The notes beneath the pieces are model-generated. The model was not told the DNA's origin. It worked only from the letters and a program-made list of their open reading frames with translations, and ran no database searches. The position numbers were made by a program, and so were the translations under genes. Of a DNA stretch of 39,562 bases, positions 1 to 39,542 are shown piece by piece (within the stretch, counting starts at the first letter, position 1; every line of letters starts with the position of its first letter). This DNA is from a virus (Duplodnaviria > Heunggongvirae > Uroviricota > Caudoviricetes): IMG/VR virus record IMGVR_UViG_2690316243_000006. One strand, 5' to 3'.

Positions 1-361
1 GGTACTTACCTCGGTACGGGTGTTCGGGTTCCAGGGGATCTCAAAGGACTCCGGCAGATAACGCACGGTGTCGCACAGGACCAGGCTCTGGTCGGTACTT
101 TTTTGCGCGTGCTCCTCATAAAAGAAGATGCCTTCCTCCGCCGCCATCCGGCACAGGAAATCGTAATCAGTTTCGCCGTACTGGACACAAAACTCACGGG
201 AAGGATGCGGCTCGCTGAACAGCGGACTCCACTCGGTCACACCGTTTTCCTTCAGGATCGTCGCGAGGATGCTTTCGATGTCCTCATTCTGGAAGATACG
301 GAAGTTCTGGCGCAGCCCTATGCGCCACAGCGGTGGGCATACCTTCATGCTGTACAGCATC
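1..361 (-). pseudogene. vgrG: Host vgrG-like (T6SS spike / phage gpD-like) gene, distal fragment, interrupted by prophage insertion; partial at window edge
   Basis: Minus-strand frame open from 363 to 1, reading QMLYSMKVCPPLWRIGLRQNFRIFQNEDIESILATILKENGVTEWSPLFSEPHPSREFCVQYGETDYDFLCRMAAEEGIFFYEEHAQKSTDQ...; continuous in frame with 39535-39562 once the prophage is removed. Confidence 0.6.
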
Positions 362-364
362 TGG
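351..364. repeat. Left copy of 14-bp direct repeat TGTACAGCATCTGG at the prophage junction; contains the inferred 5-bp target-site duplication GCATC (357-361)
   Basis: Identical 14-mer at 351-364 and 39529-39542; host sequence resumes immediately outside both copies. Confidence 0.7.
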
Positions 365-440
365 CGATTTTTTTGATACCGATTTGCATTTCATTTGATA
401 CCGCTGAAAAACACCGATACGCAACTTATTTGATACTAAA
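362..440. repeat. Phage right-end (attR-like) region with repeated putative transposase-binding motif TTGATACCG
   Basis: TTGATACCG at 373-381 and 395-403, TTGATACTA at 430-438; the inverted complement CGGTATCAA/CAGTATCAA recurs at the opposite end. Confidence 0.6.
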
Positions 441-482
441 TCGGCGCTTTTCTTTTGAGTTTTAGAATGAGTTTTTAAGCGT

Positions 483-1220
483 TCATTCACTCTCTTTCAA
501 ACCAGTTTTAACTGTTTGTGGTTTTGGGTAAGGCTGGACTTTGAATAGCTTTGTGTTAAGGCGTTTTCTGGCTCTCTTGTCCAGAAACCGGATGTAACGA
601 AACTGACGGAATTTATGAACACTGGCTCTGTCGATATTAGCCCGCAGATGTTCACCTCGCTGTCCTCCTCGTTTGATTGCATTCTTGCAAATCTCGTGAT
701 ACCACTCGCCATCAAGTTCATAGAATGTTGTTTCATGACTGCCTACATAATCAAAATTGCTTGCCTGGTACACGACACCAAGACAGCCACAACGCTCATC
801 TGCAAACGACTGAACCCACTGCACCTGCGGATAAAGTTGTCTGATTAGTTTGAGCGCGTAACTGATTGCCCTTGATTCGGAGTTTCTCGGCATACAGTCA
901 TGCAGCCATAACCGGTTAAGCTCCATATATTCGCGGTTCTGCGTGCCAGTTACGACGCGTGCACCATTGTTTGGATTAAGGGCATAACCCCATTGCATTA
1001 CGCCAACCAGCTCCCGTTCTGAAAATATGCCCAGATGAAGGTAGGAATTATTTACGAAACGATGGCTGTAATGTTTATTGACGACGACCAGCCGGGCCAG
1101 CCAGCAACTTATTGTCTCAACCCGTAACTCACGGGAGCCATAACCGACGATATTGTCGTTATAGTGAATAAGTTCAGGCGTGCTGATGATACGGGATGTA
1201 ACTTGCTTTCTGTTCCCCAC
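483..1220 (-). CDS. mom: Mom-like DNA modification protein (start tentative: GTG at 1220 preceded by AGGAAA; the open frame extends to 1415)
   Basis: Position at the phage right end immediately downstream of, and overlapping, a Com-like zinc-finger gene, as in Mu com-mom; assignment is by synteny, not motif recognition. Confidence 0.55.
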
Positions 1221-1374
1221 GACAGGATTTCCTTGTGTATGTGGGGTGCTCTGTGGCGCTCTGAGATGTGATTTGATTGAGGGTTTTACAGCGCGGACAT
1301 TTAACTTCCAGATAACTGAAGCTGGCTCGTGCCAGTAGCTTGTTACAATGTCGGCACCGTATGTTTCGATACAT
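1174..1374 (-). CDS. com: Com-like zinc-finger translational activator of mom
   Basis: [34 protein letters not shown]...[15 protein letters not shown] resembles Mu Com (CxxC...CPRC zinc finger); ATG at 1374 preceded by GGAGG; 3' end overlaps the mom frame. Confidence 0.8.
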
Positions 1375-1520
1375 GGCCGCATAACCTCCTGCTTTGTTGT
1401 TGATATCTTTATCACTCAATCGATCGACAAAAACGATCGATTTGATTTATTTAATTGATACAACAAATAACACGAAATGTCATTAGCGAAAATTTATGAG
1501 TTTGATCACTAATTTTAAAC
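1375..1520 (-). promoter_or_regulatory. Upstream control region of com-mom with three GATC (Dam) sites
   Basis: GATC at 1422-1425, 1435-1438 and 1504-1507 in an AT-rich leader; in Mu, mom transcription is controlled by Dam methylation of upstream GATC sites and by C protein. Exact promoter not resolved. Confidence 0.45.
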
Positions 1521-1630
1521 GGTGCTGTAACGCATAAGTGCTGAATGATTGTACATTTGAATACCGCAAAGCAAACAAATCAACTAATTTATAGAAGTCA
1601 ATTGGTTAATTGCCAGCGTAAGAGGCTGCT

Positions 1631-1924
1631 ATGGACAATCATGTAACGACGAGAAATCGAAAAATGATTGAAAATGCGGAAATCTATAATGATTATTTTT
1701 CCGATTATTCAGATGCCTGCAAATACAGTTCGAGTGCGGGAGAGTTCATATGCTTCAACTTTTTTATTAAATCTTATGTTTTTCCTCCACAGCAAGAAGA
1801 TGGAGGTGTGCCACCTCCTGAAATCACTTTGCACCGTATAGCCTCCGTCTCAATGATGGAGCAACAGGCTAATGAGCTGTATAGCATTCTGGGAACGATT
1901 CTACAAAAGCGTGAATCGGACTAA
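1631..1924 (+). CDS. Hypothetical protein (97 aa) in AT-rich cargo, divergent from com-mom
   Basis: ORF with AGAGG upstream of the ATG; no recognisable motif. Confidence 0.4.
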   Translation: MDNHVTTRNRKMIENAEIYNDYFSDYSDACKYSSSAGEFICFNFFIKSYVFPPQQEDGGVPPPEITLHRIASVSMMEQQANELYSILGTILQKRESD

Positions 1925-2091
1925 TGATACCGGTTCATTTGCCTGCCCGGATGGGGAAGCAGGATTGACTGCTCCATAAGCAGCTATATTTCTGAATACG
2001 AAATACTATCCAGCGATTACATATGGCTGGATAGCGGCAAAGATGTTTTCATTAGTGTCAAACCGGCAGAGGACACCACCGGTTTGTATTG

Positions 2092-2346
2092 TTACATCAT
2101 GGTACTGTCAGTTCCGGGCTGAGCCGGGTCTGGTTGCTCTGGCTGCGCGTCGGTTTTCGGCTCATTATCAGCATCACTGGCCGCAACTGCTGGCCCAATA
2201 AGTTTTGCCAGCACTTCATCAACGTAAGTGTCGATTTGTGCCTCAAAATCCTTGCGGACCTGCGCTTTCAGCAACTTATTTACTTCACCGGAATACAGTG
2301 CCTGTTTTACCAGGTCTTCAGTGACGGTGCCTTTAATTTCTGGCAT
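2092..2346 (-). CDS. Hypothetical small acidic helical protein (84 aa)
   Basis: Strong RBS AAGGAGGA 7 nt upstream of the ATG; protein-like composition; downstream of the 60-aa membrane protein gene. Confidence 0.5.
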   Translation of the reverse strand: MPEIKGTVTEDLVKQALYSGEVNKLLKAQVRKDFEAQIDTYVDEVLAKLIGPAVAASDADNEPKTDAQPEQPDPAQPGTDSTMM

Positions 2347-2381
2347 GTATATCCTCCTTATGCGGGAATAAAGCCCTGCAA

Positions 2382-2564
2382 TCAGGGCTGGGTCGGGTCT
2401 TTTGGGAGCGGAGTTACCTGCGCTGTTTTACTGAGTTTTTCAGCTGCTGCGTCCTCAATTTTGCGGCGAACATAATTTCTGATGGCCTTATAACCACCAC
2501 TCACCAGATATAACGCACATACTGCCGTGCAGAAATACAATAAAATAAGCTGTAAAAATGTCAT
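2382..2564 (-). CDS. Small single-pass membrane protein (60 aa; true start ATG at 2564, the ORF-track start at 2576 is a TTG)
   Basis: GGGAGGG RBS before the ATG; N-terminal hydrophobic helix LQLILLYFCTAVCALYLV followed by a basic tail. Confidence 0.5.
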   Translation of the reverse strand: MTFLQLILLYFCTAVCALYLVSGGYKAIRNYVRRKIEDAAAEKLSKTAQVTPLPKDPTQP

Positions 2565-2579
2565 TATCCCTCCCAATTA

Positions 2580-2620
2580 TTGACATGGTGTTGACACCGG
2601 TAATATCTGTTAGGTAAAAA
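2580..2620 (+). promoter_or_regulatory. Candidate sigma70 promoter on the + strand
   Basis: TTGACA at 2580-2585 and again at 2591-2596; TAATAT at 2601-2606; imperfect dyad GGTGTtgACACC at 2587-2598. Confidence 0.3.
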
Positions 2621-2660
2621 GGTGCACTGCATTTTTTGCTTTGGATATAACGATCTTTTT

Positions 2661-2701
2661 GCCGCCGGTTTCTTGTTTTCCCTTACCGGCGGCATTTTTT
2701 T
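2661..2701 (+). terminator. Candidate intrinsic terminator on the + strand
   Basis: GCCGCCGGT ... ACCGGCGGC stem (9 bp, 15-nt loop) followed by a run of seven T at 2695-2701; on the minus strand the stem is followed by AAAAAG, so it is not a canonical terminator for the esterase gene. Confidence 0.45.
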
Positions 2702-2708
2702 ATCCTGC

Positions 2709-4763
2709 TTACGCGTTATTCACTTCCACCACGATACTGTCAATCAGTACCGGGTAAGTCGCATTTTTAGTGATATCGGTCACGCGCAACTTGTCTGCCG
2801 TAAACGTGCCGACCGGAGACTGCGACAGCATGAATGGTGTCCCGTCCTTACCATCAATGACCGGCGTCACCTCAATACTGTTGTTACCGGCAAAACGGAA
2901 GCCCAGCGTATGCCATTCGTTATTAAATGCGCCGAATGACCCCAGCTTCGTGTTCTGCGCCGTGTTTCCTTTGTGATACATCACGTTAAGGTCTGTGGCA
3001 TCGCTCTGTACGTAGAACGATGCCAGCAGGTTATGACCGGCATTTCCTTCCAGAGTAACCCCTTGCGGCAGGGCAGAAACCGGCCAGTACAGCGCCAGTG
3101 CGTACTGATTAGCCGTAAGCGCGCCATCGAGTTTAAAACGACAACTGACAAGACCACCTTTACCCAGCAGGTCCGCACCATTACCAGCATCATGCTCAAG
3201 GTACCAGGGGGCTCTTCCTGTTTCCTTGGTCAGTTTCATTGCCTTACCCCCGCTGGCTCCGGCATCATCCACGATTTGAGCCTTGCCACCTCCGGCAGCC
3301 CAACCCTGTGGTGTCAACCGTCCTTCAGACTCAGATGCCCGGTAAGCAAATAGCGTACTCATCGTCGTGGTGTCTGCGGGTGGCGTGGACGGTTTTGATG
3401 GTGTATCAGGTGACGGCTTCTCATCCGGTGGTGTCACGGTCTGCCCGCGCATCAGTTCAGCCGTGCGCCCTGCATGGAGCATAATAGCTGAGGCCAGACG
3501 GTCTGAAATGACGCCCCTGCGTGCCCATGAGCTGAAATGGCTGTCACGCTGTGTCGAAACAAAACTGCCCTGGGTTCGGGATGCTGCACCGTAATACCCG
3601 ACAGCCACAATATCCGGGTCTTCCGCCGGAGCATTCGTTGGCGTGCTCTGTCCATTCTCATCCGTCAGGAACGGTACAAAGAAAATTTTCTGTGCTTCCT
3701 TGCCTTTGTAGCCACCGTATACTGCCTCATATTTATCGGTGCCAGCGTTTTTCCAGTAATACGTGGTATCACCGCAAATCCACGGCACCGTGGTGGCATT
3801 TCCACTCACGCACTGCGCAGCAAGCGGAGCCAGGTCAGTTCTGAACTGCTGAACCATGGCCGTGAATAAACTATTATGCTGCTGGCTTCCTGAGGCAAGG
3901 TCTGCCTCTCCCTGCATCCAGACCACAGCCAGAAGTTTGTTTTTCGGGTTTTTCGCCAGCGCGACTTTGGTGCGGCTTACCAGGTCCTGATACAGAGGTT
4001 TACCGGCCCCCCAGCGTGAAGAATCAGCGGAAGCACCGCTGGCCTCACTGAATGAGCCGTCGGCTCCAGTGGTGAATGCTGACCCGCCACGACAACAGGG
4101 CACCAGAAGTATCCCGGCATTCTGTGGGATATAGGGAAGCAGTTTTTTGGCAATATGCAACCCCTGACCGACAGTCCCGTACTGGCCTTTTGCCAGATCA
4201 GCTTTCGGGTGGTTTATCCCGCTCATATCCTGAACATCATGCAGGCAGTGGTCTGCCGGAATGATGTCGTTGTATGTACACGACGTACCGTTGGGCGTTA
4301 CCGTACTGCGGCGTGCCAGTTGCTTAATGCGTGGGTCCGGGCGGTCAAACGAATCCGGTAACGGCAGCCCCTCGCCGTAGGCCATGCCATTTGACTGACC
4401 CGCGAGAATGACAACAAAGTAATATTCCGGCTCTGAACTGCTGCCATTCGTGCTACCGGAAGGCCCGGCGTTATCCGGTGCATTCCAGTCGGAGGGCGTG
4501 AGCGTTCCGGCCACGTCAGATGTGATTGGAATGATGCCAGTCACGCCTGAACTGGTGATTTCTGCACTGGGATTACCGGATACCGGCATTACCCATAATG
4601 GCTCTTTCGTGCTGAAGCGGATCACGCAGTCTGCGAAGGTGATCCCCCCTTTATTACCCGAAGGGCGGAAAGGGCTTTCAATAAATGCCACCGTGCCACC
4701 GGCAACCTTGACTGAAAACTCTCCGGGCATGGCGGAGAGCATTTTCCACTTGGAGTCTGACAT
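2709..4763 (-). CDS. Sialate O-acetylesterase-like protein (SASA/SGNH esterase domain, Pro/Thr-rich linker, C-terminal lectin-like domain); resembles prophage NanS-p proteins
   Basis: GQSNGMAYGEG and WMQGEADLASG motifs typical of the SASA family; linker TPPDEKPSPDTPSKPSTPPADTT; about 200-aa C-terminal domain; own promoter region after the gin terminator. Confidence 0.7.
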   Translation of the reverse strand: MSDSKWKMLSAMPGEFSVKVAGGTVAFIESPFRPSGNKGGITFADCVIRFSTKEPLWVMPVSGNPSAEITSSGVTGIIPITSDVAGTLTPSDWNAPDNAGPSGSTNGSSSEPEYYFVVILAGQSNGMAYGEGLPLPDSFDRPDPRIKQLARRSTVTPNGTSCTYNDIIPADHCLHDVQDMSGINHPKADLAKGQYGTVGQGLHIAKKLLPYIPQNAGILLVPCCRGGSAFTTGADGSFSEASGASADSSRWGAGKPLYQDLVSRTKVALAKNPKNKLLAVVWMQGEADLASGSQQHNSLFTAMVQQFRTDLAPLAAQCVSGNATTVPWICGDTTYYWKNAGTDKYEAVYGGYKGKEAQKIFFVPFLTDENGQSTPTNAPAEDPDIVAVGYYGAASRTQGSFVSTQRDSHFSSWARRGVISDRLASAIMLHAGRTAELMRGQTVTPPDEKPSPDTPSKPSTPPADTTTMSTLFAYRASESEGRLTPQGWAAGGGKAQIVDDAGASGGKAMKLTKETGRAPWYLEHDAGNGADLLGKGGLVSCRFKLDGALTANQYALALYWPVSALPQGVTLEGNAGHNLLASFYVQSDATDLNVMYHKGNTAQNTKLGSFGAFNNEWHTLGFRFAGNNSIEVTPVIDGKDGTPFMLSQSPVGTFTADKLRVTDITKNATYPVLIDSIVVEVNNA

Positions 4764-4833
4764 CGTCTTTTCTGCCTGTTTCTGAATTAAACAGAGTCAG
4801 AATAGCGACCGCTGAAAAATATGTGTTTTGCGG

Positions 4834-4868
4834 AAATTCAAAAAAGCGTCACGGTACTTTTGGTGACG
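4834..4868 (-). terminator. Intrinsic terminator at the 3' end of gin
   Basis: Minus-strand hairpin CGTCAC/GTGACG (4847-4868, overlapping the gin stop codon) followed by CUUUUUUGAAUUU. Confidence 0.55.
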
Positions 4869-5421
4869 GAGCTGGTGAGGCAGGAAAATAACGATAAAGG
4901 GTGGAAAGGCCAATATCAAATATCAGTGCGATTTGTTTACGGGACTCGCCATTAGCCAGCAAACGGGCGATTTGCTCCCGCTCTTTCTCTGTCAGTTTCT
5001 GAGGTCTGCCGCCATGACGCCCCTGAGCACGGGCAGCAGCAAGACCCGCGCGTGTACGTTCAATAATGAGTTCCCGCTCCATTTCCGCCAGCGCGCCCAT
5101 TATATGGAAAAAGAAACGTCCCATGGGAGTGGATGTATCAATATTGTCCGTAATGCTGCGGAAGTTAACGCCGCGTTGCCGGAGTTCTTCTGTTAAAAGG
5201 ACAAGGTGCTGCATACTGCGTCCAAGGCGATCCAGTTTCCAGACCAGCAGGGTATCCCCTGGCCGGAGTCGCTTTAATGCGCGTTTAAGTCCGGGACGCT
5301 CCCTTGTCTTACCGCTTATTCTGTCTTCGAAAAACAGCTCACATCCTGCACATTCCAGCGCATTTCTTTGTAGCGCCGTATTCTGGTCATTTGTTGACAC
5401 CCTGATATACCCAATCAGCAT
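4849..5421 (-). CDS. gin: Gin/Hin/Pin/Cin-family serine DNA invertase
   Basis: MLIGYIRVSTNDQNTALQRNALE... (catalytic Ser in RVSTNDQ), 190 aa, C-terminal HTH; adjacent to the invertible tail-fibre segment. Confidence 0.9.
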   Translation of the reverse strand: MLIGYIRVSTNDQNTALQRNALECAGCELFFEDRISGKTRERPGLKRALKRLRPGDTLLVWKLDRLGRSMQHLVLLTEELRQRGVNFRSITDNIDTSTPMGRFFFHIMGALAEMERELIIERTRAGLAAARAQGRHGGRPQKLTEKEREQIARLLANGESRKQIALIFDIGLSTLYRYFPASPAPSPKVP

Positions 5422-5486
5422 ACGATTTCCTTATTATAAAAAGCCGGAATTGTCGCATGAGGAATAAAACAGAGTTAATCCTGGCT

Positions 5487-5512
5487 TTCCTGAAAACCTC
5501 GGTTTACGGGAA
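5487..5512. promoter_or_regulatory. gix/hix-like recombination site (left), crossover core TC at 5499-5500
   Basis: TTCCTGAAAACC TC GGTTTACGGGAA; close to Mu gix and Salmonella hix half-sites; lies at the outer boundary of the left inverted repeat. Confidence 0.7.
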
Positions 5513-5860
5513 ACGGTAAACAGGGCGGCGAATGCTCTGCCATCGGACGGCACCGCCGTTGCCGCGAATAGACTCGCCACCCCAAGAAATATTAATGGGG
5601 TTCCCTTTGACGGGACGCAGGACATAAACATCACTTCTGGTATAACACAGCAGGATGCGGATTCCCGATATATCCAGGATATCAGGCTGGGAGCAGAGAA
5701 CAGGCAGACAATGTACGGTGGGGCATATTACTCTGCGTACGGTAATGTTATGGCAGGCCTGCAGATTGACAGTAAAGTTGATGCTTCAAACGATTTTATA
5801 GCATTCAGACCCCTGCAAAAATTAGTCGGAGGTACATGGATTACGGTATCTCAGTTATAA
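5500..5860 (+). other. Silent alternative tail-fibre C-terminal cassette (promoterless, no start codon)
   Basis: + strand frame open from the gix core to TAA at 5858-5860, encoding ...[47 protein letters not shown]...GGTWITVSQL; the first ~40 aa are identical to the corresponding part of the expressed fibre. Confidence 0.6.
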
Positions 5861-5911
5861 ATAGTCAGTAAATAATATATTTTAAAACAGATTTATTTCC
5901 AGGAGGATTTT

Positions 5912-6433
5912 ATGGAACTAAAAAATATAACCCGTTATTATCCTGAAAATATGCCATATGGTAATAATGTTCAGTATTTCCAGAGTGAAGATGGTAAGGA
6001 TTTCTACGAATCCCTGCCATTATTCACCAAAAAATATAAACTTTGCATAACACCTGACAGCGGCGTTATCTGCTCAATATCACAGGACGCCTCGGCGCTG
6101 TATCCTGCGGGGTTTTCTGTGGTTGAGGTCGATGAACTCCCTGAAGGCACGGATATTTCAGGAAACTGGAAGTTTGATAATGGCATAATCTCCCGTATTC
6201 CGGTTAACTACGCAAGAAAACTGGAAGCAATGCGCCAGTCATATCTTAATCAGGCATATGAAAAAATTAATGACTGGAGAACGGAGCTACAACTGGGCAC
6301 CATCAGCGATGAAGACAGAGCAGCACTTACCCAATGGATGGCATACATCAGTCAGGTGAAGAAAATGGAACTACCCGCCATTAAAACAGAAGCTGAATTT
6401 AACGCCATTAAATGGCCTGAGCAGCCACAGTAA
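5912..6433 (+). CDS. Tail fibre assembly protein (Tfa/U-like chaperone) inside the invertible segment
   Basis: AGGAGGA RBS; C-terminal region ...EDRAALTQWMAYISQVKKMELPAIKTEAEFNAIKWPEQPQ is typical of Tfa chaperones; currently antisense to the expressed fibre gene. Confidence 0.75.
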   Translation: MELKNITRYYPENMPYGNNVQYFQSEDGKDFYESLPLFTKKYKLCITPDSGVICSISQDASALYPAGFSVVEVDELPEGTDISGNWKFDNGIISRIPVNYARKLEAMRQSYLNQAYEKINDWRTELQLGTISDEDRAALTQWMAYISQVKKMELPAIKTEAEFNAIKWPEQPQ

Positions 6434-6436
6434 TAA

Positions 6437-6456
6437 AGAAGGCCGGAAGGCCTTCT
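6437..6456. terminator. GC-rich hairpin between the convergent Tfa and tail-fibre genes
   Basis: AGAAGGCC GGAA GGCCTTCT (8-bp stem, 4-nt loop); flanks are AT-rich but not a clean U-run on either strand. Confidence 0.4.
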
Positions 6457-6464
6457 GAATATCA

Positions 6465-7346
6465 TTATATACTTGCAGCCGTCACCCATGCTCCATTTAA
6501 CAGATACTGCAACGGCCGGTAATACACGCCGCCGACGTTATCTGCCGTATTCTTACCGACATCCTGTACTTTAATTCCGGTAAGAACATTGCCGCCCCCC
6601 AGATTCAGATCCCAGCTTTCCCATGTTCCGGGCATATGTGCGGTCACCGACCCCAGTCTTATGGCGGTTACTGTTCCTGATGAGATAGTGATATCCTGCG
6701 TCCCGTCAAAGGGAACACCATTAATTGTGTGGGCATTTGCCAGCCTGTTCGCGGCAACGGCGGTGCCGTCCGATGGCAGGGCATTCGCCGCCCTGTTTAC
6801 CGTTTCCCGTAAACCGACGTTATCGATAAAAGCCCCTTTATCCGGAATGTCTGCGCCGTTCTGCTCCCTGCGCAGGTAACGGTTATCACCTTCGCTTTTG
6901 CTGTAAACATCCAGATTATTACGGGCGGTTCCCTTATTCTCCAGGTCGGCGAGATTCTGATCCTTCGCCAGGGCATTAACGTCAGCGGGACCAAGACTGT
7001 TTTTTGTGGCAAGCGTCCCCAGACCAAGATAACCACGGGCCAGACGCTGGGCCTCCGCACCGGCATCAGCAATTTCTTTCAGGTTATTTTTCCGGGAAAA
7101 GGCATTCGCAGCGATAATGGCTTTAATGGACAGCGTAAGCTGGTTTAACTGCGCCTTATCCGGCTGAATACTGGCTTCAGCCAGAATATTCAGCAGTTCG
7201 GCCTGGAGAATATTCAGCCAGTCCTGACCAATCCAGCTGATACCTTTTTGTCCGTCACCTTCGGTAAACCAGGTGGTGGTATTACTCTGCGCCGGTGCCA
7301 GCGCAGGCATATTCGCCACGCCGGAATTATTATCAACATGAAACAT
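6465..7346 (-). CDS. Tail fibre protein (S-like), with the currently expressed C-terminal variable part
   Basis: 293 aa; reads through the right inverted repeat and gix site; follows the baseplate genes in Mu order. Confidence 0.75.
6804..6829. promoter_or_regulatory. gix/hix-like recombination site (right), crossover core GA at 6816-6817
   Basis: TTCCCGTAAACC GA CGTTATCGATAA; shares the half-site TTCCCGTAAACC with the left site in inverted orientation; lies inside the tail-fibre coding sequence. Confidence 0.7.
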
Positions 7347-15518: not shown

Positions 15519-17021
15519 TCACAAAATGAAACGGATCTGCGCGGCCATGAAGCGGAACTGGTTAACCAGATCCGGTGTACACATCACATCCAGACGGTTA
15601 CGGTCTTTTGTGTTGCGCTCCACGAGCAGATTCTTTTTAAAGGTGTCCAGATTTTCGACCAGCCCGAGTTCCACCCATTCTTCCCCCAGTGCAATCAGCT
15701 GGAGCGTCATAATCTCCGGCGTCACGATATTCTGACCGGGCCGGACGGGAGTACCGTTATCGGCCAGTTTGTGGCGCGGGAAACGCTGCGTGATAAAGGT
15801 GCGCAGGGAATAACGCAGATATGACAGGGTGTAGATGGTTTCTACATCCAGATAGCTGGGATCGCTTTCGCCGTATGCATTCTGACGGTACATCGTCACC
15901 TGACGTTCAATCTGCACCACATCAGCGGCCGCAACGGTCACCGTGGACATGCCGGTATAAAGCAGGCTGTTTCGCTCTTCCCGCGTCAGACGAGCCGGTG
16001 CTTCAGGTGCCATACGGGCAGGCAGCGCCAGTGTCTGTAATGGTCGGGCCGGATCCGTTGACAGGGAGGGCGCACAGACCGCACAAATGGAGGCCGCCCA
16101 GACATAATCCGGCTCTGGTGCTTTAGGAATAGAAGTGCAGGTAAACAGGAAGTCATTACGGGATTCACCAAAACTGGTTGCCGTACCGAAGGTGCCGGTA
16201 TGCGCCATCCAGACCATACCGTCCGACATTTTTACCGGTCCCCAGCGTTTCAGCAGTTCATCCGCCAGAATTTTGAGATTTGCCGCATCCTTATAGGGCA
16301 TGACGATGTAGTTGTACTGACGATTCCCCATCCCTGAGACGCTACGGGTGATATCGGGGTTTGTTGCCTTCTGTGTTGGCGCGACGAGCTCCAGCGTAAG
16401 ACCGGCCGGTGTAGTTTCACCGTCATAATAGTTCACCCGTAAATCATGAGCTGAGCATTCACCGATAAAGCGGGCGTTAACCCCCATGCTCCCTTTAAGT
16501 CCTTCAGCATTATCACCACTGACTTCAGCTGCGATAGCAGTGAATGGCGCATCAGTGTCAGCGTTAATGACCTTAGCCAGCTATTCCACAAGCTCTTTAC
16601 CTTTTTTCCCCTTACTGACGGGCAGGAGGTAACGGCGACCGCCGATGTAAACACTTAACACCCCGTCTGCCAATGCTGTTCCAATGATATTCATCACGCA
16701 TGCCCTGGACTGACCTGTTCCAGCCCCCTGTGCAATGGCATATAACTCTGTGTCAGGGTTAATGGCGATAAATTCCTCTACCATCAGTGCAATCATGGAA
16801 CCTCGCCCCCAGAGTTCTCTTGCTTGTGAAGCTCGGGTAATACGTACTGGTACATCAAGCTGACCGCGCCCCTGAATGGTGGTGTCTTTCATTGCAGCCT
16901 GACCAAACAACAGTACCGCCTGACGCTGTGGTGGAGTGCCGGTCACGGCCATTGAATTATTGATTTCAATCTGTACCAGCGGAATGCGATTGTTATCGCC
17001 GATATAATCAAAGTTAATCAT
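15519..17021 (-). pseudogene. Tail sheath gene (Mu L / gp39-like) interrupted by one in-frame TAG codon at 16581-16583
   Basis: ORFs 16581..17021 and 15519..16487 are in the same frame; the 31 codons between the TAG and the next ATG are open and read LAKVINADTDAPFTAIAAEVSGDNAEGLKGS; combined length ~500 aa matches a sheath protein. Confidence 0.8.
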
Positions 17022-17308
17022 CAGGACGTCCCCTTGTCTGATGCTGCGGGTTTTTCAGTCGCGGGTTTTTCAGTCGCAGGTTTTTCTGCTGCCGCTCCCG
17101 CGGGTTTTCCGGCGGCATCAGTCGTTGCAGACGCTGCTGCCGGTGCTGCTTCAGCCGCTTTTTCCACCACAATGACGTCCCCGTCATTAAGACGGCGGCA
17201 CCAGAACGGGGTGAAGGGTTTTTCCTCTCCCTCCTGCGCCAGCGGTTTCATGGTGTCCGGATCGCGGATCAGGCATCCCGGCGCGGGTTTGATAAAAATG
17301 GTTGTCAT
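17021..17308 (-). CDS. Mu gp38-like protein with a short EKPAT peptide repeat
   Basis: 95 aa; C-terminus AAEKPATEKPATEKPAAS encoded by a 15-bp tandem repeat at about 17034-17090. Confidence 0.55.
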   Translation of the reverse strand: MTTIFIKPAPGCLIRDPDTMKPLAQEGEEKPFTPFWCRRLNDGDVIVVEKAAEAAPAAASATTDAAGKPAGAAAEKPATEKPATEKPAASDKGTS

Positions 17309-17311
17309 CTG

Positions 17312-17875
17312 TTATTCCTCTGACGGTCCGGCTTTTTCACCGGCGGCGGTTGCACCTGGCAGGCTGATGTGCGCCTTAAATTCCGGTGTGCCTTCCGGTT
17401 CGGTGAAGGTTTCGTAATGGCGCAGGAAATCATCCAGCGAGCTGATATCAGTCAGCGGTGCGATCATTTCCTCGCAGGAGAAATAAAGCGCATACATCAC
17501 CGCGCCACTGTCGGCCTGCGTTTCGGTGTAACCGTTGACCGCCTTTTCAAAGTAAAGCGGTGAGGTTTTTTCGGTTCTGAAGCCGTCCAGCACGGTAATC
17601 AGGCGGGCCACAATCTGATAAAGCCCGGGACGGCTGACCTCACGGCCATTGAGCATGTCGCCGATGACGTAGAACACCCAGTGGCTGACCAGACGCCCAC
17701 GGGTACGGCCTTCACCGGCACCCAGCCAGGCAACGTAGATCGCCGGGGCGCTAATCAGCATGGTGCGCAGCACACTGTCGCTCCAGTCGCCGGGATGCGT
17801 GTCAACTGACACCAGTTCATTCCCGAAATACTCACGGATACGGGCGATGTACGCTTGCTCGGTTTCCGTAATCAT
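17312..17875 (-). CDS. Mu gp37-like (K) protein
   Basis: 187 aa; synteny. Confidence 0.55.
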   Translation of the reverse strand: MITETEQAYIARIREYFGNELVSVDTHPGDWSDSVLRTMLISAPAIYVAWLGAGEGRTRGRLVSHWVFYVIGDMLNGREVSRPGLYQIVARLITVLDGFRTEKTSPLYFEKAVNGYTETQADSGAVMYALYFSCEEMIAPLTDISSLDDFLRHYETFTEPEGTPEFKAHISLPGATAAGEKAGPSEE

Positions 17876-18291
17876 ATAAAGCCCTTCTGGTTGCGCCCGA
17901 ACACCGCCGCATCAGACTGCACCTGCGGTAAATCCCCGGATTCAGGGGCCGCACCGTCTGTATCCACGCCGACCGGCACGTTACCGTTCATGACATCTTT
18001 CAGCCAGGCCAGCGCCTCACGGTAACGGTCACGCGCCTGATCGGATGCCCGCTGATCGCACAGGTAATAAAAGGCAATCGTGCAGCAATGCTGAACAAGG
18101 ACCGCCGGAACCACCGCCAGCGGCAGCGTGTAACGGGCAGACAGGTAACTGTCGATAAGGGCAGACGCGTCCGTCAGTGCCCGGTTCAGCTTGCGCGCGT
18201 CCGGCTCATCCGAACGGGGCACGGCCAGTAATGGCCTGAGCAAATCCTCGCGGTAACGTGCCCGCATATCGGTTTCGGTGGCGTAATTCAT
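17872..18291 (-). CDS. Mu gp36-like (J) protein
   Basis: 139 aa; synteny. Confidence 0.55.
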   Translation of the reverse strand: MNYATETDMRARYREDLLRPLLAVPRSDEPDARKLNRALTDASALIDSYLSARYTLPLAVVPAVLVQHCCTIAFYYLCDQRASDQARDRYREALAWLKDVMNGNVPVGVDTDGAAPESGDLPQVQSDAAVFGRNQKGFI

Positions 18292-29995: not shown

Positions 29996-30011
29996 TATCG
30001 TGGCTCCATAA

Positions 30012-30571: not shown

Positions 30572-30574
30572 ATA

Positions 30575-31591: not shown

Positions 31592-31594
31592 GCA

Positions 31595-32643: not shown

Positions 32644-32646
32644 GAA

Positions 32647-33189
32647 TTATTCCTCCGTCAGCGCCACATATTCAGAATGTTTAATTTCCTGGCATTCTTC
32701 AGGAATACCCCCTTTTATTTCCCTGCCATAAGCGCCTACTTTAAACACCACGCACAGGGCATCACGGGAGAGCGACGGGGTCCACCAGGAGTCCGTGTTA
32801 AACATGGAGGGGATTCTCATTACCCCCAGCTTTTCACAGAGCCAGACAAGGAAATCAGGACGCTTTCTTAACTCACGTTCAGCGGTTTCAATCATTGCGG
32901 CAATCGCCGGACCTTCAGGGCATGACTCATCAGGTCTGGCAATAAAGCACGGTCCGTCCCCGATAAAAGCCACATCATCGCGCTTACGCCAGCCCGCAGG
33001 CAGAGAACCAGAAAAATAAAACTCACTGATTACGTCCATGGCGAACGGCTTTAAGCGCAATCCGGCAGCGCCTGTATTTTTCAGTAATGCCCGAAGAATA
33101 CTGTTGCGTAGCGGTAAAACATCCCGCTGATATTCGGTTAAATATTTATTTGTGTACACTATGTCTAATTTGAAATAAAAATATGCCAT
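32647..33189 (-). CDS. Hypothetical protein (180 aa)
   Basis: ORF downstream of gam; no recognisable motif. Confidence 0.5.
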   Translation of the reverse strand: MAYFYFKLDIVYTNKYLTEYQRDVLPLRNSILRALLKNTGAAGLRLKPFAMDVISEFYFSGSLPAGWRKRDDVAFIGDGPCFIARPDESCPEGPAIAAMIETAERELRKRPDFLVWLCEKLGVMRIPSMFNTDSWWTPSLSRDALCVVFKVGAYGREIKGGIPEECQEIKHSEYVALTEE

Positions 33190-33286
33190 ATTTCCTGTTC
33201 CTTATTTTCAGTTTACAGGCGCAGGCAGTCCCCTGACGCGAGCGCCATAATTAACACGATGTGATATTTAAAGATTTAATGCGGTG

Positions 33287-33817
33287 TTATTTATTCAGTC
33301 CGGCGTCCTGTTCAAAAGGCTCGACATAAAAACTTTCAGCGCCTTTATTCACCTTTATACCGGCAATGCCCTTCACCGCATCTGGCTCCGCCAGGACAGC
33401 TTGCTTATTCACTTCCTCTTTCGTGCGGATGAAGCGCTCAAGGCCCATACGGCGCAGCATTTCAATCACGCCTTCCACATCACGGCTGACGCTGCATGAT
33501 GGCGTTCCCAGCCGCCATGACACCGTTCCGGTGGTCAGATTGGCTGTTTTGGTTTCGCCGCCGTTCGTCAGCTCATTGCGGTTGGTTTTACACCAGTCAT
33601 GAATCCCCTTAAAAAGCACTTTGATTTCTTTTTTAAGGTTTTCAATCTGCGGCGTATAACGGGCGGTGATTTCTGCCACTTCGTCATTCATCGCCGTTTC
33701 CAGGCGTAGTGCCTCACGCTGCATATCCCCAAAGCGTCGGATATCGCGGCTGACCTCTTCACGGGTCTGCGGTGCTGCCTCGGCTGCGGCCTTTAATTTT
33801 GTAACGCGTTTAGCCAT
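33287..33817 (-). CDS. gam: Host-nuclease inhibitor Gam (Ku-like DNA-end-binding protein)
   Basis: MAKRVTKLKAAAEAAPQTREEVSRDIRRFGDMQREALRLETAMNDEVAEITARY...TANLTTGTVSWR...RFIRTKEEVNKQAVLAEP closely resembles Mu Gam; 176 aa. Confidence 0.85.
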   Translation of the reverse strand: MAKRVTKLKAAAEAAPQTREEVSRDIRRFGDMQREALRLETAMNDEVAEITARYTPQIENLKKEIKVLFKGIHDWCKTNRNELTNGGETKTANLTTGTVSWRLGTPSCSVSRDVEGVIEMLRRMGLERFIRTKEEVNKQAVLAEPDAVKGIAGIKVNKGAESFYVEPFEQDAGLNK

Positions 33818-33828
33818 TTTGTTTTTCC

Positions 33829-34122
33829 TTATTGCAGTGTGCCTGATGCTTTATGCACGCGGTGGCGTTTAATGATGGCATCCGCCCCAAAAGCCTGTAC
33901 AGATGCCTGAAATTCCGCTGAGAGAAACTGAATAATTTCAGGACTGTGATACTGGAGAATACTTGCATAAACGTCACAGAGTGACGTCGGCCTGTTATCC
34001 GTATCACGTTCTGTTTTTACATCCACACCAATCTTTTCATGCACTTCAACACTGTCATTGCCTGCCGGTTTTTCGTCATGCGAAACATGCTCAAATTCAA
34101 AAATAACGCGTACTTTGCTCAT
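33829..34122 (-). CDS. Small hypothetical protein (start taken at MSKVRVIFEF); paralogue of the next gene
   Basis: Shares the MSKV-R-IFE N-terminus and overall pattern with the 34127-34399 product. Confidence 0.45.
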   Translation of the reverse strand: MSKVRVIFEFEHVSHDEKPAGNDSVEVHEKIGVDVKTERDTDNRPTSLCDVYASILQYHSPEIIQFLSAEFQASVQAFGADAIIKRHRVHKASGTLQ

Positions 34123-34126
34123 GGAA

Positions 34127-34399
34127 TTACCCCTGCTGATTAAATTCATTACCGTTAATAACCCCGGAAGCCATGCCCCTGTCTTTCATGAATGCACTGG
34201 CTTTCATTGCCACAAGCTCTGCGAAGTTTCTGCTTTCTGCCAGCATAACCACCCCAAAAATCATGGCGGGGCTATCATTTTTCTGCTTTATTCCGGTTGA
34301 ACGTATATCCAGACTTACCCCCATGTGCACTGTTCCATCAGCGTTTTTACGGATAACGTCCTCCTTGTATTCGAAAATAATGCGCACGACTTTACTCAT
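34127..34399 (-). CDS. Small hypothetical protein (90 aa); paralogue of the previous gene
   Basis: MSKVVRIIFEYKEDVIRK... versus MSKVRVIFEFEHVSHDEK... Confidence 0.45.
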   Translation of the reverse strand: MSKVVRIIFEYKEDVIRKNADGTVHMGVSLDIRSTGIKQKNDSPAMIFGVVMLAESRNFAELVAMKASAFMKDRGMASGVINGNEFNQQG

Positions 34400-34677
34400 C
34401 CTCTGGCCCTCGTTCTGTTTGGATAACTGACCCGGCGTCTGACCTCACGGCAGAACTGAACCATGGCATTAAAGGCTTCTTCTTCCGTCACCGCTTCCGG
34501 TATTCCAGGAACCAGTAGCTGTTCCTGTTCATCGCGTCCATGACGCGCCACAACATCAATCACATGCCGTACCGTGGCGGGCTTTCCGGCAACTATCGGC
34601 AATGCACCTTCCGGCAGGACGTAACCAAACTCAATAAGACCACTCGACCACGCCCATGCAATGAGATTTTTTTTCAC
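34396..34677 (-). CDS. Hypothetical protein (93 aa)
   Basis: Early-operon ORF with overlapping stop/start. Confidence 0.45.
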   Translation of the reverse strand: MKKNLIAWAWSSGLIEFGYVLPEGALPIVAGKPATVRHVIDVVARHGRDEQEQLLVPGIPEAVTEEEAFNAMVQFCREVRRRVSYPNRTRARG

Positions 34678-34678
34678 C

Positions 34679-34945
34679 TCACACCTCCCAGTAAACCGTG
34701 CAGCCGCTGATGCGGGTGGCCTTCACACGGCGGCGCAGGCCGTTGGTCTGTATGGTGATTTCAATTTCACCGGTTCCCTGCACGTTGCCTACCGGCGGCG
34801 TGGTTTTCAGTGCAAAACGTTGCGGATAGCGCTTACTGCGTTCCAGTACCGCACCGGCAAGTTCGGTCAGACGGCGCGCGCTGTTCAGGGAGTCGAATAA
34901 ATTCATTTTGTTACCGCAGGATTGCATATTCATATAACACCTCAT
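34679..34945 (-). CDS. Hypothetical protein (88 aa)
   Basis: Early-operon ORF. Confidence 0.4.
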   Translation of the reverse strand: MRCYMNMQSCGNKMNLFDSLNSARRLTELAGAVLERSKRYPQRFALKTTPPVGNVQGTGEIEITIQTNGLRRRVKATRISGCTVYWEV

Positions 34946-35173
34946 TTAGCTGACTTGTTTCGCACCAACAGAACGGCATATTCCGCTGTAAACTTCTGTC
35001 GCACCTTCGCGATCAAGTCCGGCAGATATCACCATTCGTGTGCGGTCATTAAATTCAAAAAGTAAATCGCCACATGCTTTATTTTCGGCCAGTGAAATCA
35101 CCTTCACGTTATCGAAATTAACCAGGTAAAAGCGTCCGTAAATATCAGGAATATTAAATACCGCCATAATCAC
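34946..35173 (-). CDS. Small protein at the Mu kil position (75 aa); function not established
   Basis: Immediately downstream of the B-like gene, where Mu carries kil; size and position only. Confidence 0.35.
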   Translation of the reverse strand: MIMAVFNIPDIYGRFYLVNFDNVKVISLAENKACGDLLFEFNDRTRMVISAGLDREGATEVYSGICRSVGAKQVS

Positions 35174-36102
35174 ACCTGTGAGAGTAATTCAGGGTTGGTA
35201 TAAACCTCTTTAAAGGCCGCATTAATATGTTTTTCTGTCAGCGCCGCGCCTTCACCGCTGGCGGTGAGCCACGCCTGGTTAAGCGTATGTGTCAGAACAC
35301 GTAATGCTCCCGGCTTTTCAGCGATAGCCTGCATGACGGCCAGCTCGGCCTCACCACTGATACCCCATGCCCTGGCAATGGCCAGCACATCCGCCTTTTT
35401 GGCCTTGCGAAGTTGTTTTGTACGGGCAAGACGGCTGAACAGGCGCGATAAATCATCAAAGGCGCGGCGTCCACCTTTAAACAATCCGCGCGGGTTACCA
35501 ATAAGCACCATCCCGATCCCCGTGGCGTCCTGAATTGCCCGGAGTTGCTCCAGACCGTCAATACCAAGATGATCCGCCTCATCCACAATCACCAGTCCAC
35601 GCGTTCCCGTCAGGCGACGGCGGATGGCGCGGGATAATGCCCCTTTGTTCGCGCGGGTGTAATCAATCCCCAGCGCATCGGCCAGCTCCAGCAGACACTC
35701 CGTGACGCTGGAGTGCGCGGGTGACAGGGTGATCATCCAGGTGTTTGGTTGCTCCTGGCAGTAATTACGGGCAGTGGCCGTTTTACCCACACCCGGTACG
35801 CCCACAATAACGTTAATACAGCCCATCAGGCGAACCGCCTGAAACAGTGCGCGCAGCTCCTGGACTGTCTGAGTTTCCACAAACTGCGGCGGTTCCGGCA
35901 GTGCGCTTTGTTTATTCCAGTTCTCATACCAGGAGCGCAGGGAAGCAGCCACAGCGGCGTTATCGCCTTTATATTTCCCCTTGCGGAAAGCCGATAATGT
36001 GCCGTCGGAAATTCCCGCCTCTCTGGCGATGGCATACTGCGTCAGCACGCCGCCATCAATAAGTTCATCAATGGTCTTGATTACATCGTTTATATCGGTC
36101 AT
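35170..36102 (-). CDS. B: MuB-like transposition target-DNA activator (AAA+ ATPase)
   Basis: 310 aa; Walker A GVPGVGKT and Walker B LVIVDEAD; directly downstream of the transposase gene. Confidence 0.85.
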   Translation of the reverse strand: MTDINDVIKTIDELIDGGVLTQYAIAREAGISDGTLSAFRKGKYKGDNAAVAASLRSWYENWNKQSALPEPPQFVETQTVQELRALFQAVRLMGCINVIVGVPGVGKTATARNYCQEQPNTWMITLSPAHSSVTECLLELADALGIDYTRANKGALSRAIRRRLTGTRGLVIVDEADHLGIDGLEQLRAIQDATGIGMVLIGNPRGLFKGGRRAFDDLSRLFSRLARTKQLRKAKKADVLAIARAWGISGEAELAVMQAIAEKPGALRVLTHTLNQAWLTASGEGAALTEKHINAAFKEVYTNPELLSQV

Positions 36103-36177
36103 ATTATTACCTCGCGTTTGTGTAGTTCCTTTGTTTAATCAAATAACCTGAGTCGCCGCTCGGGTTATTTTTTTATT

Positions 36178-38286
36178 TCAGGCCAGAGGGTCATTTTCTT
36201 TTAATTTCGCTTCGAGCAACTGCAATCCCCGCTGGAAATTACGCTCGTATTCTTCATCAGGCTCATCATCAACGGCAGGTTGCTGAACGGTCACCGTATT
36301 ACCCACAGGGCGGTATATGTTTTCCAGCCAGGGCTCCTGCGGCTTGTGCTCCAGCACGTTGACAACCTCATCCTCGGCATCACGGATTTTTTCCTCTGCG
36401 CGTTTACGCATACCTTTAAGGCGTTGCTGCTGTTTGTAGTATTCCGCGCTGACCGGGAAGGCTTCGCGTTTATTGCCGTCCCATACCGCCTCGCAAATCA
36501 CGCTGCCATCCGGGCGACGTACGGTAATTCGTTCGGCATCATGAATGTCATAGCTGATAAGCACCTTGCGGCCATGCTCATCACTCAGCTCGGGCGCGTA
36601 GTAAATATTATTCAGCCAGCGTATTTCACAGCGTCTTACAGGGCGTTCCACCATTGGCCGGAACATATCCCGCAGCTCAACATCGGACAGCCATTCAATT
36701 TCCGTGTCCTCTTCTGCCAGGCGTTTTTTTCTGAACTCCGCCGGGCTGTAATGCTTCCCGTTCGGCTTCATGGGTAATTCATCGTGCGGCCGGTTGTTGT
36801 ACCACTCAACGCCATCACGAATGGCATCAATCAGTTCAGACCAGGACGGTAAATCACGCATCGCTGACTGTTGCCGGGCGTTCAGCCGTTTGCCCTGTTG
36901 CAGGGCGGTAAATGCCGAGCGTAAATCGCGGTTGGTTTTGCGTAACGTCTCGCGATCTGCACCTTTCCCGAAATAGGTGCGGTATTTACGGGCTATACGC
37001 ATCGGTAACGTGCGGTTAAGCCGTTCGATAATGCCCCGTCCCTGCGGGTTACCGGCAATCCCGGTTGGGTGATTAATCCCCAGTCGCGGCAGGATCCCCA
37101 CAACTTCCTTATCCAGGATGTCGGCGGTTTCCCCGGAACCGTTATCCGAGTAATACAGAAACGGTTTGCCGTGATTACGAATACCGTACTGTATGGCACC
37201 GGCTACGGCGAAAACATTTTCAGCCAGGTCAAGGCTCCAGCCCACCACAAAGCGCGTGCCACCGTCGATAACAAAGGTCACTTCCGGTGCAAATGGCCGC
37301 CCGTGAACCGGGTGCCTGCATTTCAGCTTCATGCCGTGACCGTCACCAATCCAGACATAATTCACCGGCATTCTGGACCAGTCGCGGCGCGTGAATCCCT
37401 CAAGCTGGCGGTATTCACTGCCGGTCACCCGGCCTTTTTGTTTCACCACTTCCGGCAGTTTCTTCATTGCGCGGCGGATGGTGTCGTAAGACGGCATGAT
37501 ATCGAGCATATAAGGCTCATCAGCGTGCCGGTGCTGCCATTCAGCGACAAAATCCTCGTAAGCCTCGGTCATTGGTCGGCCGTTTGACTGGCGATACTGC
37601 GCCAGAAATTCGGGCAGCCAGTTAATATCTTCGGCTTTTATTTCCTGGCGCTTACCAGGTGCCAGCAAAAGCAGGCGTTCAGCGGCGTTCTGCGCCTTGT
37701 TAAAGGCTGCAATCCAGCGTTTCAGCGTGATTTCACTCAACGCACGGCTGTTTCCCTTTTTGGCGTTCGCCGTCTCAACCATTGCCACAATGCGCTCGTC
37801 CAGTTGCGAACGTGCCAGGTTGTCAACGATAAACCGGATAGCCTTCGCACAGCTGAAACCAGGTTGTTGCGCGACTTTCAGAACTTCGCTGACGATCGCG
37901 ATTCGTGCATCAGCCACCTGGCGCTGGTTTTCAGTCAGGGCATTGAGGCGTTCGAGCATCAGTTGTGGTGATCCGCGATATGCCTCCACCGCATCAACCA
38001 CGGCAGGTGAGCGCCTGGCCTTTGTCACTACCGGAGCCGGTGATTCATCGGCTTTTTGCGTCATCAGTTGCAGGGCATAGCGTTCGCGTACTGCCTGCTG
38101 AACAGTTAAAGGCAAAGCCCCTATTTCACACTCTAAAACTTTCCCTTTTACCCCTGGTTTTAGCCGCGTTTTCCACGCTTCCCTCTTTGCTTTTTTGTGC
38201 AGACCTGCCAAAGAACTAGGTAGGTCACTGAATGAAATCAATTCAGTCATTGCAACCCACATATTTCCTCCGCGCACGTCGTTCAT
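36178..38286 (-). CDS. A: MuA-like DDE transposase (start probably ATG at about 38250)
   Basis: 702 aa; N-terminal LPSSLAGLHKKAKREAW domain shared with the c-like repressor; follows ner. Confidence 0.85.
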   Translation of the reverse strand: MNDVRGGNMWVAMTELISFSDLPSSLAGLHKKAKREAWKTRLKPGVKGKVLECEIGALPLTVQQAVRERYALQLMTQKADESPAPVVTKARRSPAVVDAVEAYRGSPQLMLERLNALTENQRQVADARIAIVSEVLKVAQQPGFSCAKAIRFIVDNLARSQLDERIVAMVETANAKKGNSRALSEITLKRWIAAFNKAQNAAERLLLLAPGKRQEIKAEDINWLPEFLAQYRQSNGRPMTEAYEDFVAEWQHRHADEPYMLDIMPSYDTIRRAMKKLPEVVKQKGRVTGSEYRQLEGFTRRDWSRMPVNYVWIGDGHGMKLKCRHPVHGRPFAPEVTFVIDGGTRFVVGWSLDLAENVFAVAGAIQYGIRNHGKPFLYYSDNGSGETADILDKEVVGILPRLGINHPTGIAGNPQGRGIIERLNRTLPMRIARKYRTYFGKGADRETLRKTNRDLRSAFTALQQGKRLNARQQSAMRDLPSWSELIDAIRDGVEWYNNRPHDELPMKPNGKHYSPAEFRKKRLAEEDTEIEWLSDVELRDMFRPMVERPVRRCEIRWLNNIYYAPELSDEHGRKVLISYDIHDAERITVRRPDGSVICEAVWDGNKREAFPVSAEYYKQQQRLKGMRKRAEEKIRDAEDEVVNVLEHKPQEPWLENIYRPVGNTVTVQQPAVDDEPDEEYERNFQRGLQLLEAKLKENDPLA

Positions 38287-38488
38287 ATCTAGTAGGCCAA
38301 ATAACCTGTGGCTCTACACCTATAGCCCTAGCAATTATCTTTTCACCTTTAGGGTAGGGAACTCGCAAAGCATTACCCAAAGTCCTAGGCTGCAAATTAT
38401 TTTCCCTTGATAAACGTGACAAATTGGTATCGCGTTTTTCTAAGGCTGCCTTTATATCGGCGGAAGACCAATCTTCAATAAGACTCAC
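38243..38488 (-). CDS. ner: Ner-like DNA-binding regulator (GTG start, AGGGGG RBS)
   Basis: DWSSADIKAALEKR...LGNAL...YPKGEKIIARAIGVEPQVIWPTRY resembles Mu Ner. Confidence 0.8.
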   Translation of the reverse strand: MSLIEDWSSADIKAALEKRDTNLSRLSRENNLQPRTLGNALRVPYPKGEKIIARAIGVEPQVIWPTRYERRARRKYVGCND

Positions 38489-38704
38489 AATGGCCCCCTG
38501 TGTACTTTCTATGGCAAACTTTATTACTCATGTGTGCTACTCTATTGAGTTACTCACTAGTGTATGTTTGATATGTTAGATATTAACTTAGTAAATATCA
38601 ACTGGTTAATTTCAAATTTTTAAATTTGCTCTGTATCTATTTGTTTTTTATTGAGTTATTTTTGAAATAAACCACATAAAGATATAAACAAAAGTTAATA
38701 TCAA
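38489..38704. promoter_or_regulatory. Divergent early promoter / operator region between c and ner
   Basis: AT-rich 216-bp spacer between divergent genes with reiterated TTACTCA motifs; in Mu this spacer holds the operators, Pe, Pc and the transposition enhancer. Confidence 0.5.
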
Positions 38705-39223
38705 ATGGAGTTTGATATGATCCTTGACCAAGAATGGATCCTTGCCAGTGACTTGTTGGGGGTTGGAGGTCTTCCTTCATCTCTGGCTGGGCTTCATAAA
38801 CGAGCAAAAAATGAAGGATGGGAAAAACGTTCGGTAACTACACCTGGTATCAGAGGGAGAGCATTTGCCTACCGTTTAAGCGACTTACCTGCACATGTTG
38901 TTTCCATCATTACAGGTAGTGCAGAAATAAAACACCAGCCCCCTCAAAAGAACGGTGGCAATAGCGAGTTGCTCGAACTCATCGACACTTTGAGCCAAGA
39001 AGAGCAAGAATTAGTTATTTACACCTTGAGAAGGAAAGGGGTAGAAAAATTGCTGGAATTCTGCAATCAAGAGAATCAAGAGTTGATCGCTTTAACAGGT
39101 ATTCGACGCCTGGCAGCATTGAGCCTTAATAATTTATCAGATCAAAAGGTTAGAGAGATTTTCGAGGGAGATGAAACCAAGGATCATCATTTCAATTTAA
39201 CCCATAAAGAAGCCAAAGCGTAA
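38705..39223 (+). CDS. c: Mu c-like repressor
   Basis: 172 aa; N-terminal ...LPSSLAGLHKRAKNEGWEKR domain homologous to the transposase N-terminus; divergent from ner. Confidence 0.7.
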   Translation: MEFDMILDQEWILASDLLGVGGLPSSLAGLHKRAKNEGWEKRSVTTPGIRGRAFAYRLSDLPAHVVSIITGSAEIKHQPPQKNGGNSELLELIDTLSQEEQELVIYTLRRKGVEKLLEFCNQENQELIALTGIRRLAALSLNNLSDQKVREIFEGDETKDHHFNLTHKEAKA

Positions 39224-39354
39224 CCCCATGAAGCCCAGGCCATGCACTTAGCGAGCACTTTCAACTTGATTTGTGACCAGATCGATATTGATATAAACTT
39301 TTTAGCATAAAAGACATTTTAAGTACTTTTAAAAACGTCCATAAGCAGTATGTG

Positions 39355-39534
39355 CAGTATCAAATTTGTTGCCGATACCTTAATTTTATACCGGATTTTA
39401 TTTAATCAGTATCAAAACTAAACAACCTCCAGAATCATCGATCACCTGTTTTATTTCAGTATCTTACAGGTGATTTCACCTCCTTTCACTAAAACCCTTG
39501 TCGGTATCAAATGATTTACCTAGTTACATGTACA
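39355..39534. repeat. Phage left-end (attL-like) region with repeated putative transposase-binding motif
   Basis: CAGTATCAA at 39355-39363 and 39407-39415, CGGTATCAA at 39502-39510, inverted relative to TTGATACCG at the other end; phage ends ...TGTACA at 39534. Confidence 0.55.
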
Positions 39535-39542
39535 GCATCTGG
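39529..39542. repeat. Right copy of the 14-bp direct repeat TGTACAGCATCTGG; contains the inferred 5-bp duplication GCATC (39535-39539)
   Basis: Identical to 351-364. Confidence 0.7.

Follow-up and report, generated by a model that had tools for sequence, protein, structure and literature searches.

The DNA analysed here, a window of 39,562 nt that makes up the entire contig CXCY01000024.1 of the short-read draft assembly GCA_001258795.1, carries a transposable prophage inserted into a host vgrG gene, and one end of this prophage is occupied by host sequence. As judged from gene content and nucleotide identity, the element is a Mu-type prophage of the Sp18-like family of Mu-like elements found in E. 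coli and Shigella, damaged at one end but a member by descent. Where its relatives begin with the eight nucleotides TATAGCGC, the window contains CAGCATCT, and a comparison of junctions resolves the 14-bp repeat shared by its two borders into a true duplication of 4 bp, an overwritten terminus of 8 bp and a GG dinucleotide common to host and phage. The explanation favoured here, to which a probability of about 55% was assigned, is that an insertion normal for the family took place in vgrG and that a short patch was then copied from an intact target during repair of the junction.

The 14-mer TGTACAGCATCTGG was found exactly twice in the window, at positions 351-364 and 39529-39542, as had been noticed in an earlier interpretation made without database searches (the sequence-only reading). 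When the two junction regions were shuffled 300 times, the longest word common to both was mostly 6-8 nt long and did not exceed 11 nt. Joining the host flanks through a single copy of the 14-mer restored one open VgrG frame (...LGENDKNQMLYSMKVCPPLWRIG...), confirming that the phage interrupts vgrG and that the flanks encode one continuous product. Translation and identity to intact copies show that the left flank (1-350, minus strand) is the downstream portion of the interrupted vgrG, from SMKVCPPLWRIG... on, and the right flank (39529-39562, minus strand) is the portion upstream of the insertion (...LGENDKNQMLY), as shown by translation and by comparison with the empty site; the gene is broken near codon 95. 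Over window positions 1-364, the identity to intact vgrG genes of E. coli was 98.9%. Comparison with an uninterrupted allele, which the sequence-only reading had proposed as a check, was made with vgrG of E. coli O121 RM8352 (locus L008; labels of the form Lnnn and Hnnn denote relative loci and matches compared with the window). This allele reads ...ACCTTCATGC TGTACAGCATCTGG TTTTTGTCGTTCTCCCCCAG..., with only one copy of the 14-mer at this site, and its sequence 3' of the 14-mer is also given as TTTTTGTCG. The 14-bp palindrome previously reported in the host target is perfect (ATGCTGTACAGCAT, 347-360) and is likewise present in the empty site, and the insertion created a further palindrome of 8 bp at the right junction (TACA/TGTA, 39525-39532), adjoining the 14-bp palindrome of the host.

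The termini of the element were established by comparison with about 100 relatives at unrelated loci, among which the family ends were found to be 5'-TATAGCGC...GGTTACA-3'. On the right, 13 near-identical relatives located in different genes (ypdA, hyfF, yahO, torZ and others) matched the window up to 39528-39530; all relatives read directly ended in ...CCTGGTTACA followed by unrelated DNA, and in LC727881 the Mu-like insert is annotated as ending at the equivalent of window position 39528. As relatives at unrelated loci diverge directly after ...GTTACA, the right terminus of the window element (GTTACA-3', 39523-39528) was placed at 39528. An apparent extension of this end to 39547 in one match (H45) was rejected as a chance gapped alignment. 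The repressor-side terminus CCTGGTTACA of the Sp18-like lineage is present at 39519-39528 with one substitution, a G-to-A change at 39522 that is unique to the window and lies 7 nt from the terminus (CCTAGTTACA, compared with CCTGGTTACA in all relatives read). Situated 41 nt from the end of the contig, this change could be real or could be a low-coverage error.

On the left, about 230 E. coli genomes matched the window only from position 363 (GGCGATTTTTTTGATACCG) onward. In every relative read directly, GGCGATTTTTTTGATACCG was preceded by TATAGCGC, with unrelated DNA flanking it, and 60 of 60 sampled BLAST hits (from 234 E. coli records) began at the first T of TATAGCGC. These hits were obtained with a 200-nt query from the phage end, a 39-nt query having given no match, probably because of low-complexity masking. 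L033, the closest relative found, has 3 mismatches to the window over 9401 nt (all non-coding-like) and also keeps TATAGCGC. In the window, by contrast, TATAGCGC does not stand before GGCGATTTTTTTGATACCG. The dinucleotide ahead of TATAGCGC was TG in just 6 of 20 distinct junctions and is therefore part of the flank rather than of the phage; on the same 20 flanks, the idea that TGTACAGC is a version of the phage end TGTATAGC that has diverged and carries a 2-nt indel was dropped. At each end of the family element, 17 nt separate the terminus from the nearest TTTGATACC repeat. Conserved TG...CA termini are not a property of the Sp18-like family, in which CA is found at one end only.

A target-site duplication of 4 bp was observed in all eight prophages for which both ends were compared (L001, L009, L010, L011, L003 with L024, L026 with L025, L028 with L027, and L030 with L029), the duplicated sequences being GATG, TGTA, TCAG, AGTG, CGTG, GTAC, CATA and GTAA. 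The ypdA empty site predicted from a 4-bp duplication was identical to intact ypdA over 296 of 296 positions and free of gaps, and the depositors of LC727881 likewise annotated a duplication of 4 bp; in the papers examined on Sp18-like phages and on SfMu, the length of the duplication is not stated. Variants with 5 bp, in which TG is assigned to the phage or in which the last A of ACA or the first T of TATAGCGC is counted within the duplication, each failed on at least two of the eight relatives. Once the right end is set at 39528, the window shows TGTA as its duplication, the right copy occupying 39529-39532 directly after ...GTTACA and the left copy being placed at 351-354.

The sequence-only reading had preferred a phage running from 362 to 39534 with TG...CA ends, a 5-bp duplication GCATC and a 9-bp match to the host arising by chance; it also offered an element with terminal TGTACA. 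Such a placement fits the textbook 5-bp rule of phage Mu (PMC8705779), but it conflicts with the family termini and the 4-bp duplication measured directly, and it would make one end 6 nt longer and the other 7 nt shorter than in relatives that differ by 3 mismatches over 9.4 kb. Its probability was judged negligible, and both forms were rejected, given that relatives stop at 39528, the duplication is 4 bp and TG belongs to the flank. The count of ten possible placements for a 5-bp duplication was arithmetically correct, although its premises, a duplication of 5 bp and TG...CA ends, fail for the Sp18-like family. The fallback of a longer duplication came closest to the truth; only 4 bp are truly duplicated, however, and the remainder consists of the replaced terminus and the GG.

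With these boundaries, the expected left junction is ...CATGC TGTA/TATAGCGC/GGCGATTT (the last segment also given as GGCGA), whereas the window reads ...CATGC TGTA/CAGCATCT/GGCGATTT. In other spellings, the normal junction appears as ...CATGCTGTA/TATAGCGCGGCGA..., ...TGTATATAGCGCGGCG... or ...CATGCTGTATATAGCGCGGCGATTTTTTTG..., and the scar as ...TGTACAGCATCTGGCGATTTTTTTG... or ...CATGCTGTACAGCATCTGGCGATTTTTTTG... The segment CAGCATCT (355-362) corresponds exactly to the eight bases found after TGTA in the uninterrupted host target, and it replaces the otherwise invariant TATAGCGC in register and with no change in length. Counted from TGTA, the window is identical to the host at offsets 1-10 and to the phage from offset 9 on. 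The overlap between the two is GG (363-364), which is the first in-register run of at least two matches between host and phage and is a candidate for the microhomology at which the sequence crossed over.

Under the favoured explanation of normal insertion followed by patch copying, the repressor-side end (...GTTACA, 39528) would have been joined to the vgrG target with a 4-bp duplication of TGTA, and, at the left junction, the 3' end of the host DNA would have been extended by about 12-14 nt on an intact copy of the target before the nascent strand realigned on the phage strand at GG and continued. An intact target copy is proposed as the template because host sequence is present on both strands of the left junction; this copy could have been the uncut strand, a prophage-free sister chromosome, a vgrG paralogue or the right junction. 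The equal lengths of lost and gained sequence, as well as the position of the cross-over, would follow because a nascent strand anchored upstream can re-pair only in register, GG being the first 2-bp match. Copying may have accompanied the recombinational repair of the integration intermediate, or it may belong to a later repair event. A more specific and clearly more tentative proposal is that the scar is a natural trace of recombinational repair, templated by the sister or the target, of a Mu-type strand-transfer intermediate, by the pathway that genetic work has led to being proposed for Mu (RecABC, PriA-DnaT). If so, repair would be able to overwrite a transposon terminus with target sequence and thereby fix a transposable prophage in place in one step.

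The same features of the junction bear on two other routes to it. Since the target is a perfect 14-bp palindrome, it was considered whether the host palindrome ATGCTGT/ACAGCAT had been restored by intrastrand template switching after a normal insertion. This would account for six of the eight replaced bases (CAGCAT); the next bases, however, are CT (361-362), which match the host and not the phage (GC), and a hairpin template would have given GA, making this route very improbable. Alternatively, the transposase may have transferred the repressor-side end only, with the mom-side end nibbled by 8-10 nt and joined at GG to a host break 12-14 bp away, through microhomology-mediated end joining and without templated copying. 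The canonical right junction agrees with this, and joints of this kind typically show a 2-nt microhomology together with missing terminal phage bases. Nevertheless, exactly as many host bases were gained as phage bases were lost, which would here be a coincidence and is natural under anchored-strand realignment, and in most cases end joining removes host sequence instead of duplicating it. One-ended integration was therefore considered unlikely.

The predicted consequence of patch copying is a loss of mobility. At the mom-side end, the terminus of the transferred strand would now be ...CTG-3' instead of ...ATA-3', and the transposase cleavage site would be lost as a result. In Mu, changes to the terminal bases block cleavage. 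By analogy, the prophage is probably locked in vgrG, in which case the disruption of this gene would be permanent. Neither the same junction nor the altered end was found in GTDB genomes, JGI metagenomes or IMG/VR, and no complete E. coli genome holds the window junction, as would be expected for a one-off immobilising event. The substitution at 39522, an amber codon in the tail sheath gene (described below) and the altered end found nowhere else are together consistent with a decaying element.

Several points weigh against the favoured explanation and its consequence. The evidence for the left junction comes from one contig of a short-read draft, and a comparable scar was seen in none of about 100 relatives, leaving no second example. 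A realignment secured only by TGTA and, on its other side, by GG is weak in energetic terms. The proposed loss of mobility draws on the behaviour of Mu termini, and the transposase of this element is very divergent from MuA. Furthermore, the window is a whole draft contig that ends in a multi-copy gene, vgrG-like copies usually being multiple in E. coli genomes (median of 2 matching places), and the right host flank measures just 34 nt, as it should if the contig ends at the point from which vgrG is repetitive. This raises the prospect of an artefact of assembly or sequence "improvement", in which the true junction is TGTA/TATAGCGC and its eight bases were overwritten from intact vgrG paralogues. 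A length-preserving overwrite by a paralogue has the look of mis-polishing, and the second unique change, at 39522, lies close to the contig end. On the other hand, De Bruijn contigs hold only k-mers that are present in the reads, no scaffolding or gap-filling route was found that would lead to an in-register swap of 8 nt joined at a 2-nt overlap, and the contig agrees perfectly, over 10.4 kb, with the independent Logan assembly of run ERR025737, a stretch outside which the left junction lies. An artefact was accordingly rated as quite unlikely.

The retained body of the prophage occupies 363-39528, with most genes on the minus strand, as supported by Pfam matches and by identity to L033 and to the E. 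coli AF39 prophage (99.4% over window positions 363-30014); a full element would span 355-39528 (39,174 bp). Shigella sonnei 53G (HE616528) is among the closest phage relatives. Pfam searches detected a Mu-type transposase, MuB, a Mu-type repressor, a Ner-like protein, Gam, Mor, a Gin-type invertase and Mom, in a Mu-like layout in which com/mom lies at the opposite end from repressor, ner, A and B. The repressor gene (38705-39223, plus strand), with a Mu c-like DNA-binding domain (HTH_Tnp_Mu_1), marks the equivalent of the Mu left end, and the DNA modification gene mom (483-1220, minus strand; Pfam Mom, E = 7.8e-78, and annotation of relatives) marks that of the Mu right end. As the repressor and transposase are at the right of the window and com/mom at the left, the left end of the window corresponds to the right end of Mu.

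Next to the gene for a MuB-like AAA+ transposition protein (35170-36102, minus strand; Phage-MuB_C, E = 2.5e-25) lies that for the transposase (36178-38286, minus strand), which has a MuA-like domain set (Mu-transpos_C and HTH_Tnp_Mu_1). The latter protein is very remote from MuA: in comparison with solved structures, the N-terminal DNA-binding domain alone matched Mu proteins (E = 1.6e-5), and the catalytic core gave a weak match to retroviral integrases (E about 2e-4) rather than to the MuA core. Its presumed binding sites are repeats of the form TTTGATAC[CT], present in three copies per end and in inverted orientation, with six of the seven window copies within 200 bp of the ends. The mom-side copies start at 372, 394 and 429 (372-437, plus strand), the first being 17 nt from the expected terminus, and the repressor-side copies start at 39356, 39408 and 39503 (39356-39511, minus strand), the outermost again 17 nt from the terminus. 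Scans of the window for tRNA genes and Rfam families gave no matches.

The tail sheath gene (15519-17021, minus strand) contains an in-frame amber codon at 16581-16583 (GAG to TAG), as seen by comparison with the AF39 prophage, to whose sheath protein the product is otherwise 100% identical. Two short contigs from human-gut metagenomes (L044 and L045) encode the same truncated product of 146 aa, and the amber variant therefore occurs outside this assembly. In two other relatives (L035 and L040), an internal deletion fuses the sheath region to the tail-fibre region, the alignment jumping from about 7,700 to about 16,000-18,000, and these are decayed copies within the family.

Sp18-like insertions were found at dozens of different loci in different strains. 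Several independent ones lie in or beside type VI secretion system genes, namely tssM (H106), IcmH/DotU (H154), TagO (H200), the vicinity of SciN/DotU (L036) and, in the window, vgrG. Among roughly 100 sites seen, this may reflect chance or tolerance of insertions in dispensable islands.

Taken together, the analysis fixes the boundaries of the prophage, with the right end at 39528, TGTA as the duplication and an expected left end at 355. Its most reusable result is that the textbook Mu rule (5 bp, TG...CA) fails for the common Sp18-like prophages, which should aid annotators. If the left junction is confirmed, it would be one of the few cases in nature of a transposable-phage end that its target has overwritten, with a bearing on Mu-type repair and on prophage fixation. 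The element belongs to a known family but has an unusual overwritten end, which probably immobilises it; the novelty is modest, and the correction is a useful one.

Sp18-like prophages are common in E. coli and Shigella and occupy scattered, unrelated loci (PMC7430833, PMC10132054). Sp18 of E. coli O157:H7 Sakai and its Sp18-like relatives (the LC727881 Stx-phage insert, AF39 and O157 F8492) have the same gene order and content as the window, are 85-99.97% identical to it in nucleotide sequence, and have ...GTTACA, the TTTGATACC arrays and the 4-bp duplication in common with it. The window differs from them in the replacement of TATAGCGC by host CAGCATCT, in the unique G-to-A change near the other end and in the sheath amber codon. 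Bacteriophage Mu (Muvirus) is, like the window element, a transposable temperate myovirus with com/mom opposite repressor/ner/A/B, with Gam, Mor and a Gin-type invertase, and with three transposase-binding repeats per end; the Sp18-like phages differ from Mu in duplicating 4 bp rather than 5 bp, in having one terminus that begins 5'-TA rather than 5'-TG, and in a transposase that is barely detectable by sequence as a homologue of MuA. Variation in duplication length among transposable phages was already known, since Mu duplicates 5 bp and Pseudomonas phage B3, of an unrelated lineage, duplicates 6 bp (PMC8705779). Finally, the window resembles "grounded" prophages, in which a cis-acting site for mobility is lost and a structural gene carries a nonsense mutation, but it differs from them in that the site was overwritten, precisely over 8 bp, by target sequence rather than removed by deletion or disrupted by insertion of an insertion sequence (IS).

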